From: Octopus vulgaris
Taxonomy: Eukaryota
Direction of reading: 5' to 3'
Assembly: GCA_951406725.2 (NCBI GenBank)
Contig: OX597824.1
Coordinates: 77,128,001 to 77,192,000 of the forward strand
Length of the DNA: 64,000 nucleotides
Part shown: positions 172-56,535 of the stretch, in pieces
How positions within the stretch are numbered: position 1 is the stretch's first letter
How the letters are laid out: each line of letters starts with the position of its first letter
Notes under the pieces: model-generated
Databases searched by the model: none
Told to the model about the DNA's origin: nothing
Seen by the model: the letters and a program-made list of their open reading frames with translations, nothing else
Made by a program: the position numbers and the translations under genes

Positions 172-392
172 ACTGGAGTAAACACATAAATGTGAAACAA
201 GGTAGGAAAAAGAGTACTCAAACACCAGGGGTAGTGTAATATGCTTTATTTAAAAGCAGCAGAAAATTCAACAAAATCTGTTACTCTGAGTTTCACGTTC
301 CTGTTATTCTAGCAAAAACTGTCCGACCAACAGGAACGTGAAACTCAGAGTAACAGGTTTTGTTGAATTTTCTGCTGCTTTTAAATAAAGTG
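172..392. mobile_element. Fold-back element in (TA)n with a degenerate hammerhead motif (probable Penelope pseudo-LTR remnant)
   Basis: Inverted arms of about 62 bp at 244-305 and 329-390, with TA repeats on both sides. Plus-strand motif ctgt-ccgacca-acaggaacgt-gaaa-ctcagag-ta-acag at 319-356. Confidence 0.6.
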
Positions 393-919
393 TATATATA
401 TATACGATGGTTCTAGAACAGCTATCCACTACATAATTGTCCCCATAATTCTTCCTTGAACATTTGCCCCCATACGACAACTATCCTTGGTATCCTCTTG
501 GATAATTTTATCCCTTTTAAAATGAAATTAAGGAAAGGCATAGCTGTAAGATGCAAATATATATCAATAAAGCTGGTTTTGTTATGTTTTTATCTATTAT
601 CTAGCAAGAAGAAGAATGTATTAATATTTGTATTCTTATATTATATTATCATAATTATACCCCCAAAATAAGCAAACTGTGGTCTCTATACAAATGCAAT
701 CATTAATAATTATAATTAATAATTGCATTATTACAATAAAAGGATTATTACAATAATTAGTAATTATTAATGCTTATTTGCACCCTCATAATTGGGAAAA
801 GTATCCAGGAGGCATCTGTCAAGAAGCAGTTGTCAAGAGGTGTATATAGTGGAGGGGATAAGCAATGGTCCTGATATCATACAAAGATGTTGTCCAATCT
901 ATCCTTCATTTATATATTT

Positions 920-1310
920 ACTCTTTTACTTGTTTCAGTCATTTGACTGTGGTCATGCTGGAGCACCGCCTTTAGTCGAGCAAATCGACACCAGGATTTA
1001 CTTTTTGTAAGCCTAGTACTTATTCTATTAGTCTCTTTTGTCGAACTGCTAAGTTACGGGAATGTAAACACACCAGCATCAGTTGTCAAGTGGTGTTGGG
1101 GGGACAAACAGACACACACACATACATATATATATATACATATATACAATAGGCTTCTTTCAGTTTCCATCTACCAAATCCACTCACAAGGCTTTGGTCG
1201 GCCCAAAGATATAGTAGAAGACACTTGCCCAAGGTGACACGCAGTGGGACTGAACCTGGAACTATGTGGTTGGTAAGCAAGCTACTTACCACACAGCCAC
1301 TCCTACGCCT
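920..1310 (-). mobile_element. tRNA-headed SINE family A, full length
   Basis: Minus strand begins ggcgtaggagtggctgtgtggtaag (A-box-like) then ggttcagtccc (B-box-like), has an internal (TA)n and ends gactgaaacaagtaaaagag. More than 10 related copies in the window. Confidence 0.9.
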
Positions 1311-1817
1311 TTTTATTTTAGTGTGTGTGATTTGAAAGTAATTTGATTGTTATTTCTAGTTTGATGAGTGACCATGTAAAGTGTTGCATACACAACAAAA
1401 CGTAAATTCTAGTGAAAACGTTTCTCATTTAGATGGCCTTTGATTGTAGTCTGTTAACAGTTTTTTATAATTTAAAGAAAATCATTGTTATTTTCATTGT
1501 CAGTCATGTTTTGCATCTGCTTTTCCACACTGACATGGGTTAGGTGGGTCATTGCAGACCAAGTCAATTGTTTTATGAAATTACTGTCTGCCAAAATGGA
1601 TAAGGGATCACATCTCACATGGTACATTTTCGACATTGTTTTTCTGGTGGGCTGCTTTTCCTATGACCAATCCCTTGGCAAAGCATAGTGGATACTCTTT
1701 ATCAGGTCATTAGAACTAAAGAAGTTGTCATGTCCCTAGCAAGATGACAAATCCTCTCTCTACCTTGTGTTGCTTTCGTTCACTAGCTAACCACTTTACA
1801 GAGAGCATAGCAGGTGT

Positions 1818-52578: not shown

Positions 52579-54705
52579 CAAGGATCAAAGCAATGATATA
52601 CTTATGCTCATTATATCCTCTGCATTACATAAGTCTCCTTACTGTCATTTAATCATAACCACACACACACTCACATGCATATATATATATATGTATTAAC
52701 TCTACATACATATACATCTATATATAAGAGCATATATATAAACTATATACATATACATTTACATGTATATATTTATGAGTCATTGATATAGCTCTGATAA
52801 GAATAGGATGCAGGTGAATTCCTCTTTACAGTATTTTGAAATGCATTACAGCATTTTGAGATATGCTATTCAGTTTGAAAATGTATGGAATCAATAAATC
52901 ATGAATTAATCCCTATTCATATGTTGTTTTTCTCTCAATGTTTACTGCCATGCACTGAATTTAAATTGAATTCATTTAGTGTTTGAACTTCTGGTTTATG
53001 AATTGAACTGATGTCAGAAAGTGAATTTACACTCTATGTAGGTTATTGCAGAAGTCAGTGGAGAATTTAGTTAGCCAGATTTTGTACCCACTGAGTGCTT
53101 ATTCACCTGGATTCTTTAATCCAATTTTTCCTTCATGTACATATACATATTTGTATGTATGTTCACACATGTACACATATATATGCTTGTACATGCCTAC
53201 ATACATATATGTAATCATACATACACATTTAGTTATATTATACAGCTTTAATTTTTTAGCAGAGAAACTTCATTTTTACTAATTCAGTAGCACATCAGAA
53301 ACTTAATATTTTAAAATCTGTAAATGCAGTTAAGTTATTTGAGAATATTTCTTTGTGATTCCAACATTTGGAATTAATTTGATACTTTGCAGACCGCAGT
53401 TTCAAATAAGAATTTTCAGCTATGATTTAAGCATGGGTGTAGCTGTGTGATAAATAGTTTGTTTGCTTGTCACATAGTTCCAGGTTCAGTCCCACTGCAT
53501 GTCATTTTTAGTGAGTGTCTTCACTAGAGCCTCAAACCAATCCAAACTTTGCTAGTATATCTGGTAGAATGAAAGTGAAAGTAGCTCATTGCTTATATTT
53601 GTATGTGTGTGTGTATGTTACTGTCTCCTTTCCTTGACATCACGAAACAGTTGTAAACAAGTATCACCATCATGGTAGTGATGTCCTTTGTTAACATGCT
53701 TCTCTGAAAGCATGTCTGGTCATAGGGAAATATTACCTTATTTGGAAACAGATAAAGTTGGCAAGAGAGGCATCTGACTAGAAAATCTGTTTCAACAAAT
53801 TCTATCAAATCCACATTTTGTATAGAAAATTGGACATTAAAACAATGATGACAATGAAGATTCTTCAGTTTTAAGTCATTGAATTCATAACTGAAATATT
53901 TCTGCATCTTACTTATGGCGAAAGAATCCTCTCCTGAACATCTATAGAATTCCTGATCAAGGATAGCAAAAAGCAATGATATCATGAATCAAAGAGGACT
54001 CTAGCTGTGAGGCAAATAATTCAGTTTTATGGATTTAATGTTTTAGCAAAAGAAATTGTACTGAATATTTTAACAACTAAAAACATTATGTTTTCAAACA
54101 AACCATTTGAATATTTTTATTCAGAAAATTGCTGCTGTTAAGAATTAAATTTGTTCAAAGCATGGAATCACAAAGAAATATTTTGGAAAAAACAAAGCTT
54201 AACTGCATATACAGATTTTCCTTGTTGATATTTTAGATCTGTAAAAGATAACTATTCACTGTGTAATTGTATTTGCCTTTTACAGAATCCTCTTTGGATT
54301 TCTGGTCTCTTTGACACACACAAACATACATCATCATCATCATTATCTAGGTTGTCATCGTTGTTGTCGTCATCGTCATCATCATCATTTAACATCCCCT
54401 TTTCTATACTTGCATTGGCCAGATGGAATTTGTTACAGCAGATTTTCTGCTATTGGATGCTCCTCCTGTCACCAAACCTCACCCATCTCCAAGCAATCGG
54501 CATCTTTAGAACTAGTTTATCCAGGGCAGGATAGTTTAAGAAATCTAGAATGTTTAGGGCAACAAATATCGATTCCCTTTTTAAACTGAGAATGAAATTT
54601 ATGCAACTTGAAACATTAAAAGAATCAAAGAAATGGATATATATAAGACCAATTAATCCACATCATTTGGATGCCATATTCCTATAAATTTATAGTACTG
54701 TTTAA

Positions 54706-55488
54706 CCCTTTCAGTACCAACCTGGTTGAAACCAGCTCTTGCTTTGAGTACAAATGTCTTGTTTTCATAAGTTTTGAATTAAAATCTTCCACTAAACCTT
54801 AGTCACAATTTATGTTCCTAACACTAGCTTAATGATAACTAAGTTATTTTACTAAATTCTTTGTTATCATCATCATCATCATCATCATCGTTTAACGTCC
54901 ACTTTCCATGCTAGCATGGGTTGGACGATTTTGACTGAGGGTTGGCGAACCAGATGGCTGCACCAGGCTCCAATCTTGATTTGGCAGAGTTTCAACAGCT
55001 GGATGCCCTTCCTAACACCAACCACTCCGAGAGTGTAGTGGGTGCTTTTTACATGCCACCGACATGGGGGCCAGTCAGGTGGTACTGGCAACGACCTCGC
55101 TCGAATCCTTTTACATATACCACCAGCACAGGTGCCAATAAGGTGACGTTGGTAATGATCATGCTCGAATGATGCCCTTTTACGTGCCACTGGCACAGAA
55201 GCCAGTTGGCTGCTCTGGCAACAATCATGCTTGGATGGTGCTCTTGGCACCCTACTAGCACAGACACAAGTGCCAGTAAGGCAACACTGGTAGTGATCAC
55301 GCTCGAATGGTGCCCTTTAAGTGCCACTGGTACGGAAGCTGGTTAGCCGCACTGTCAAGGATCACGCTTGTATGGCGCTCTTTGCACCCTGATAGCATGG
55401 ACGCCAGTCATCGAATTTGATTTTGATTTTGCTTAACGTAATTGAAAGAAACACAGAATATCTCAAAATAAATATGGTAACGAAAGGG
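54706..55488. mobile_element. piggyBac-like MITE (TTAA TSD) containing a full-length family C copy (about 54866-55430, minus)
   Basis: ttaa-ccctttcagtacca ... tggtaacgaaaggg-ttaa. Confidence 0.8.
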
Positions 55489-56396
55489 TTAAACAATGTG
55501 GATTGGCATTTCTTAAACAGAATAGCAGAACTGCAAACTGAGAATGAATTACAAGCAACTTTTAGAACAGAAAAGCTCTGCACATTGAGTTGGAAATTGA
55601 GCACAAGAATTTAAGCTTTAAATTTAGTACAACACTTTAACCATTCAGCCATTTATATTCACCTAAAATAGCTAGATGAAGAAATAAATAAACTATTGTA
55701 AAAATGGAAATCTTTAAAATCCTATTTTTGTCTTACTTGATACCATGTTATTTTAAAGATAGAATGAAAACCAAATTGCTCACAAGCACACAAGAGAAAT
55801 AAAAAAAAAAAGAGAGAGAGAAAATAACCGGCTTATTGGCAAACCAATGGAACATTCTCTTTTGGCAGACAAATGGTTCTTTTACAAGAATTTTCACTGT
55901 CAACTGTTCGAAAGAGTGTAAAATTAATTCTTTTGAGACGAAAGCTACCGATTCTTCTCCAGTGGAAGAAATGGAACCATTTTCACAAGCTAAAAGAAAT
56001 ATATAAATACATAAGAGTAGGATCAATCTGTTTTAGAATATTTATAGCTATTTAGTTCCTGCCTCTTGAAAGTGAGATATTTTCATCAGGAATTTAAATA
56101 ACAATTACTTTAGACATTAAATACAATAAAGGGGAAAATAAGATAAACACACATACGTTGTGTGTATGTATACACACACACACACACACATATCATATAT
56201 ATATATATATATATATATATACATATATATCTGTGTGTAAGTGTGTGTATGTGTGTATATATATATATATGTTTATACATGTAATTATATGCATATCTGT
56301 GTATGTATATATGTGTGTATATTTATATACGTACACACACACACAAACACACACACATATATATATATATATATATATATATATATATATATATAT

Positions 56397-56535
56397 AGTT
56401 AATCCAAACATGAAAACACAAAGAGAAAACACAACAACACGAGGACGTGGAACAAGTATAGTGTTATTGGACGCTCAGGAAAAAGGAAAGATTGAGGATT
56501 TAACATTTCGAGTGGAGCTCTTCGTCAGAAACAAT
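56397..56535 (-). mobile_element. H1-related hammerhead element
   Basis: Minus strand gttt-ctgacga-a-gagc(tcc)actc-gaaatgt-t-aaat at 56498-56532; homologous to 47430-47563. Confidence 0.7.

Follow-up and report, generated by a model that had tools for sequence, protein, structure and literature searches.

A window of 64 000 nucleotides from Octopus vulgaris (assembly GCA_951406725.2, contig OX597824.1, positions 77 128 001–77 192 000; all coordinates below are those of the window) carries 14 hammerhead ribozyme motifs. We are confident in reading them as type I hammerhead folds within short TA-flanked inserts, which are likely to be the 3′ ends (pseudo-long terminal repeats; pLTRs) of Penelope-like elements (PLEs) from at least seven families and are predicted to be mostly inert in place. 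The attribution to PLEs is favored because, at some loci outside the window, motifs of the type found at position 319 follow the ends of Hydra-clade open reading frames (ORFs), with the same tail motif and the same fold-backs recurring among loci of this type. The commonest family, termed family A, appears to have U rather than A at core position 6 (A6U), a feature overlooked in the first-pass annotation from which the present analysis started.

Hammerhead motifs and their surroundings

The window has a GC content of 36%, contains no N and 172 rows of tandem repeats, and is also dense in short interspersed repeats. All 14 hammerhead sites of the first-pass annotation are present: the type I stem order and three-way junction are recovered by a structure descriptor at 12 of them and by homology alone at the other two, which are decayed. 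The strict descriptor (stem I of at least 4, no more than two core mismatches, GAAA and UH) finds 11 sites, each within 1 nt of its annotated position; the site at 56498 is added once stem I is relaxed, and those at 31901 and 37348, for which the relaxed descriptor is also negative, align to family A with 74–80% identity. By a motif score that, like its thresholds, was set ad hoc for this analysis, 12 strict matches in the window reach at least 6, compared with a mean of 0.42 (sd 0.71, maximum 4) across 100 dinucleotide shuffles made block by block; seven reach at least 8, compared with 0.08 in the shuffles. The excess over shuffled sequence on which the annotation had made its case depend is thus present. 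Two of the 12 strict matches, at 43393 and 56763, fall outside the 14 and were treated as chance, with an AT-rich duplication and no TA boundary. The best 150 of 271 matches to Rfam include no hammerhead and consist of matches of microsatellites and hairpins to miRNA models.

The minus strand carries seven of the motifs (6792, 16326, 18620, 37348, 44694, 49152 and 56498). The layout that had been proposed, with CUGANGA, GAAA and UH between the stems, is real as a fold, but the full conserved core with pairable stems is found in only three motifs (16326, 49152 and 56498), the other 11 being changed in the core or the stems. The estimate of about seven sequence contexts holds: eight motifs belong to family A, including its sister group A4, and six are unrelated singletons.

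Copies of family A are 150–245 nt in length, lie between (TA)n runs and end 94–135 nt past the cut site. Subgroup A1 comprises the elements at 6696–6901 (minus strand; motif 6829–6792, with the core CUGUUGA, an extra A and stem III ACGU), 18523–18735 (minus; motif 18657–18620, in which core position 6 is 18649 and N7 is 18648) and 20039–20281 (plus; motif 20115–20152, with a 31-nt internal duplication close to the 3′ end). A2 is represented by 37260–37450 (minus; motif about 37385–37348, with U6, A7 and G12A) and A3 by 31858–32026 (plus; motif about 31901–31936, with A6, a broken stem II and U16.1C) and 50730–50918 (plus; motif 50793–50828, with C6). The more distant A4 comprises 47359–47563 (plus; motif 47430–47464, with U4C and G5A) and the 5′-truncated 56398–56540 (minus; motif 56532–56498), which has a full canonical core. 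Two features of the minimal hammerheads (min-HHRs) of PLEs (PMC4209133) recur in the family, the extra A after A9 in all eight copies and the G10.1–C11.1 pair in seven. Stem III is ACGU or its CpG-decayed form and is palindromic at 15.2/16.2; the palindromic stem III claimed by the annotation is supported. Between A1 and A3 the hammerhead block is 82–97% identical, and the flanks 41–64%. Constant in length and with shared ends, family A is likely to be a pLTR-sized unit, non-autonomous and mobilized by the same PLE proteins. Conserved CTGAGY, ACTAAT and a pyrimidine run follow one another 30–100 nt past the cut site (e.g. 20170–20280) and are similar to the Hydra tail motif. The same stretch also resembles what we take to be a branch point and 3′ splice region.

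Three of the singletons are simple stubs. The insert at 9994–10090 (plus; motif 9994–10079) has G5C, a long stem II loop and a perfect 8-nt palindrome, and its end lies 11 nt 5′ of a (TA)n run. The stub at 44619–44766 (minus; hammerhead 44733–44694) has a 6-nt palindrome and the changes C3U and G8A, which together are the published U3–A8 swap (PMC4209133; PMC3088659). The stub at 16999–17169 (plus; motif 17025–17082) is decayed, with two core mismatches and a weak stem II, and is the least certain singleton.

The other three singletons lie in fold-backs, in which two copies stand head to head with their 3′ ends outward; the inverted repeats described in the annotation are thus confirmed, 'several' amounting to three of the 14. 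The fold-back at 173–392, between (TA)n runs, has arms at 244–305 and 329–390 that are identical at 61 of 62 positions, the left arm having a tail of ∼70 nt with the motif TTGAGYAC. Its hammerhead (319–356, plus strand) is decayed, with U4C and G8C in the core and a 4 bp stem III with a 1-nt loop. The fold-back at 49139–49334 (arms identical at 56 of 58 positions) holds an intact hammerhead at 49202–49152 on the minus strand and a G8C copy at 49202–49246 on the plus strand, its right arm having a tail of ∼75 nt with TTGAGYAC. In the third, at 16250–16462 (minus), the hammerhead is intact (16368–16326) and the inverted arm (16404–16462, 58 of 59 identical) extends through a second copy of the core and stem II before it breaks. 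The first two fold-backs combine 5′ truncation, an inverted 5′ copy and a one-sided tail, one arm being longer by about 70 nt. Published PLE insertions, which target (TA)n, are 5′-truncated and have a truncated copy in inverted orientation and a tail of 30–40 bp on one side (PMC8557442), and the tail has been traced to two start sites of reverse transcription (PMC11167929); the tails in the window are longer than those published. TTGAGYAC occurs five times in the window, four of them within TA-bounded stubs, and lies 56 nt downstream for site 319 and 37 nt downstream for 49202. A run of at least four TA units is present within 130 nt downstream of 13 of the 14 motifs, compared with 21% of unmasked positions drawn at random (n = 20 000; p = 2 × 10⁻⁸), which bears out the reported association with TA repeats. 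Insertion into (TA)n, found for these 13, is a property of Hydra-clade PLEs but is not diagnostic of that clade alone because it is common to Naiad and others.

The arm identity of 97–98% and the TA flanks would also fit derivatives of DNA transposons similar to miniature inverted-repeat transposable elements (MITEs), with a TA target duplication and a chance resemblance to hammerheads, as would seven further TA-associated fold-backs without a hammerhead (see below). The excess of motifs over the shuffles, the one-sidedness of the tails and the finding of this motif, tail and fold-back beside PLE ORFs at loci outside the window render this explanation very improbable, and for 319 and 49152 it is largely refuted. 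The seven fold-backs in question (6036–6410, 10128–10379, 32042–32323, 35309–35495, 44145–44250, 50440–50673 and 51315–51469) are mostly TA-bounded, several have a one-sided tail and the descriptor found no hammerhead in them; they are probably PLE ends in which the truncation fell downstream of the motif, or else ends of the Naiad type. Short motifs from five of them are absent from the available part of the PMC8557442 supplement.

Several further arrangements were observed around these inserts. An extra stub outside the 14, at 18180–18350 (minus), has a TTGAGYAC tail and, by eye, a hammerhead-like remnant that is negative with the descriptor; it is 73% similar to 6047–6138. The stub at 16326 is bracketed by an exact direct repeat of 45 bp (16054–16098 and 16480–16524), and by eye its inverted arm ends abruptly and joins the second copy, which suggests a duplication or a template switch during insertion. 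A segment of the fold-back at 32042–32323 (32098–32204) has a further copy at 34831–34927. At 32332–32394 a 3′ piece of another family A element, in inverted orientation, lies opposite the copy at 31858–32026 across this same fold-back; these are nested insertions in a single TA tract.

Link to Penelope-like elements and activity in place

Stems I and III of site 319 are identical to those of Hydra-2_aMil in the table of PMC8557442. The stem pattern of this site, searched for with the core set to the consensus rather than to that of 319 itself, is present at no fewer than 120 loci in metagenome contigs. At 13 of the 120 listed loci there are pieces resembling a single ORF of 721 amino acids with the Hydra motifs RWR, DKT, YRDD and CxCx5C; the endonuclease end of the ORF lies 98–186 nt upstream of the motif at eight loci, and a full ORF begins 142–160 nt downstream of it at two. 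TTGAGYAC follows 54–65 nt downstream in 40 of the 115 motifs with room for it, and 14 of the loci have head-to-head pairs. Pfam gave no match for the Hydra-type ORF, and the Hydra protein motifs (RWK, DKT and CxCX5C, with no CCHH) were recognized by eye in protein P0001 from locus L044 and in no sequence of the window. By its stems and tail motif, site 319 is likely to be a Hydra-type end, and the same probably holds for 49152 and for the stubs at 6036 and 18180. The other singletons are not assigned to the Hydra clade because an 8-nt palindromic stem III, at L044, also follows a Neptune-type GIY-YIG end. This locus carries, at 2821–3718 on its minus strand, a Neptune-type GIY-YIG ORF end with its own hammerhead, immediately followed by a full Hydra-type ORF, an arrangement that we read as a mixed-clade tandem. 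The Penelope-like origin proposed by the annotation is thus supported by the ORF-linked loci, the shared tail motif and the fold-backs, whereas the linkage to Penelope ORFs that was to accompany it is found for the site-319 type, at eight of the 120 listed loci, and neither in the window nor for family A.

Several results weigh against this attribution. The ORF linkage is confined to the site-319 type and to the DNA of other organisms, and direct DNA similarity to the linked loci is weak (best E of 2 × 10⁻⁴). Within the window, the reverse transcriptase and GIY-YIG ORF that precedes the pLTR in endonuclease-positive PLEs is missing: inspection by eye of the 224 stop-to-stop frames that span at least 75 amino acids revealed no PLE ORF, tblastn matches to 21 Hydra-type pieces did not rise above noise (best E of 0.014, in a microsatellite), Hydra hidden Markov models (HMMs) reached at most 9.8 bits, compared with 4.9–6.9 in six shuffles, at a position that is not 5′ of any motif, and Neptune-type HMMs stayed under the shuffle maxima. 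Patterns of family A had no copy in metagenome, viral or prokaryote collections, and hence no tie to an ORF, and covariation within the family is thin, amounting to one stem I pair that switches from C–G to G–C in A4. A motif similar to family A is present at locus L029. Two suspected remnants in the window, an endonuclease upstream of 9994 and a decayed ORF at 35587–36220, were dropped for want of tblastn or HMM support.

From published PLE biology, we infer that the inserts would arise through nicking of (TA)n by the GIY-YIG nuclease of a PLE. Reverse transcription would then begin at one or the other of two sites 3′ of the hammerhead, so that some arms carry the tail of ∼70 nt and others lack it, and would halt after 100–250 nt, with an inverted 5′-truncated copy sometimes being added to produce the fold-backs; the inserted copies would subsequently decay. 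The ribozyme would act in a tandem source transcript, as a dimer formed through the palindromic stem III, and the solo copies would be inactive. Most of the source lineages of family A appear to bear U at core position 6.

The annotation had gone further in describing the inserts as retrozyme-like and in suggesting that they could cleave the pre-mRNA of the host or yield small circular RNAs, a proposal that we consider quite improbable. The size of family A is indeed retrozyme-like, one run, which we guess to be RNA, contributed 1,002 contigs on this family, and the retrozyme families of vertebrates include dispersed monomers (bioRxiv 2026.07.22.740005). Retrozymes are, however, defined by at least two tandem units that each carry a hammerhead (PMC7229834; bioRxiv 2026.07.22.740005). 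Since the window contains no such unit, the nearest same-strand motif being 2.3–11.8 kb away, and no ORF remnant, the inserts are not retrozymes on the evidence of the window; tandem retrozyme arrays may possibly exist elsewhere in the genome. The elements end ∼100 nt from the cut site rather than on it, and a go-back joint is absent among the four joints listed, which is a weak point as contigs break at repeats. A single min-HHR gave no cleavage in vitro, and dimers gave low cleavage (PMC4209133). The fold-back hairpins, with predicted energies of −100 to −113 kcal/mol, pair the motif with the antisense arm and hold two of the three intact motifs, and no host exon was recognized by eye among the 224 frames. 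With the core complete in only three of the 14 motifs, and two of these buried in their own hairpin, the cutting of host RNA by these solo copies is predicted to be unlikely, and neither part of the proposal is supported.

Core position 6 of family A

The 18620 copy of family A was used as the reference for a pile-up of contigs from four of 24 listed runs (11,809, 5,047, 11,832 and 1,002 contigs), with differences listed from 4%. The runs are possibly from related species, and the summed contig depth is not read as copy number; the flank at 18733–18815 is masked and has no cover. At 18649 (U6) the pile-up lists no alternative letter of 4% or more, nor does it list any at the remaining core or stem II bases, while at N7 (18648) C accounts for 21–29%, A for 13–26% and G for 5–11% of the depth. 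The coordinates of the pile-up were confirmed at neighboring variants, and a private change in the palindrome of the 18620 copy is replaced by ACGU in 78–92% of the pile-up. In three runs the depth is maximal over the hammerhead (1.36 M in X2, compared with 0.3 M in the flank), and the A3-type flank shows loose ends on both sides; diverged subfamilies therefore share the block. Within the window, position 6 is U or C in five of the eight family A copies. In A1–A3 it is A or C in two of six copies (A6 and C6, both in A3), and in the sister group A4 it is A6. The pile-up omits variation at H17 and a CpG change (18640/18641) that is present in four of the six window copies, and therefore favors high-depth words and under-reports variation. 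Loop II is also invariant in it. We regard U6 as probably the family-wide state.

The three common substitutions at N7, with none adjacent, suggest that the U6-bearing fold may have been under selection. On this explanation, the commonest hammerhead repeat of the genome would be a non-autonomous TA-targeted Penelope mini-element, the source lineages of which were selected for a CUGUNGA core with a free N7. This core would be a working, high-copy natural variant, altered at a position regarded as nearly essential, that cleaves slowly or acts with the help of an element protein, with a different ion or as a slowed switch. The lack of a listed U6 variant in all four runs and the sharing of the hammerhead block by diverged subfamilies agree with it, as do the published A6C hammerhead, which is active but slow and prefers Mn2+ (PMC3088659; PMC7151607), and the hammerhead of an anole PLE, which is protein-assisted (PMC11167929). 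The A and C found at position 6 in A3, the A6 of A4, the under-reporting of variation by the pile-up and the low activity that a saturation study obtained for changes to the CUGA turn (PMC9901934) count against it, and we consider a working U6 ribozyme possible but doubtful.

To a ribozyme that is dead we would give somewhat less than an even chance. U6 would then have arisen once in an ancestor and spread since mobilization needs no cleavage, the block being kept for protein binding or by descent. Catalytic mutations in the hammerhead of the anole PLE left insertion in vitro unaffected (PMC11167929), the low activity of the CUGA-turn mutants (PMC9901934) is in accord with inactivity, and loop II, which would be expected to be free in a ribozyme, is likewise without a listed variant. 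Such a history is hard to reconcile, unless the fold is selected, with the presence of three different common substitutions at N7, the sole core position that is free, and the absence of any beside it.

A literature search for a natural A6U or CUGUUGA hammerhead found none, and the three matches to CUGU in the available part of the PMC4209133 supplement all lie outside a core. If U6 is fixed across the source lineages, it would offer a direct test of whether cleavage or some other role maintains the hammerheads of PLEs, a question that arises because cleavage is dispensable for insertion in the sole in vitro system (PMC11167929). If the A6U core is active, hammerhead descriptors would have to be widened, and searches restricted to CUGANGA would miss family A.

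Other features and comparison with known systems

Nearly unbroken CAT/CAC trinucleotide repeats occupy ∼3.6 kb of the window at 25300–28900. Broken frames at 7270–7653, 15029–15436, 22630–23683, 33997–34329 and 57076–57800 resemble, by eye, what we take to be remnants of Tc1/mariner, L1/Tx1, RTE and hAT elements.

Truncated Penelope ends with minimal hammerheads are already known across many animal genomes and the arrangement of ORF, pLTR and hammerhead has been published, the apparent U6 core of family A being the new point in the literature searched; the window is likely to be a very dense multi-family case in octopus. A literature search for octopus and hammerhead returned one listed motif only, Hydra-1_oBim. 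Octopus has 0 matches in the available part of the PMC4209133 supplement, and the paper on O. vulgaris repeats reports a PLE expansion, with ribozymes unmentioned in its available part (PMC13282606).

The motifs resemble the min-HHRs of metazoan PLEs (PMC4209133) in being of type I, with a short stem I, an extra base between A9 and G10.1, a palindromic minimal stem III and U-rich flanks, and also in the presence of many families per genome, mostly as single motifs from truncated PLEs with some close opposite-strand pairs. They differ in the core, for which the consensus there is CUGANGAH, whereas in family A position 6 is U or C in five of the eight window copies and U in the bulk of the contigs. 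The 14 remnants in 64 kb are not comparable with the highest published counts, of ∼4,000 and ∼9,000 descriptor matches per genome (PMC4209133), because decayed copies in one window are counted here. A natural change at core position 6 is shared with the A6C hammerhead of phage Bcep176 (PMC3088659; PMC7151607), in which the base is C rather than U; Bcep176 is a single phage sequence with measured activity, whereas family A is a high-copy animal repeat family.

Hydra-clade PLEs (PMC8557442), including Hydra-1_oBim, share with the inserts the targeting of (TA)n, a hammerhead near the 3′ end, inverted 5′-truncated copies, a tail and a stem III of 4 bp with a 1–2-nt loop, site 319 in addition matching Hydra-2_aMil in stems I and III and having the TTGAGYAC tail. 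Unlike these elements, the window has no such ORF, and by eye none of its motifs equals that of Hydra-1_oBim. Even-length palindromes such as those at 9994, 16326 and 44694 are of a type that is also found 3′ of a Neptune-type endonuclease (locus L044). Animal non-LTR retrozymes (PMC7229834; bioRxiv 2026.07.22.740005) are likewise non-coding, hammerhead-bearing, a few hundred bases in length and derived from PLEs; they form tandem units with mostly canonical hammerheads, whereas the octopus copies are solo or inverted and bear minimal motifs.

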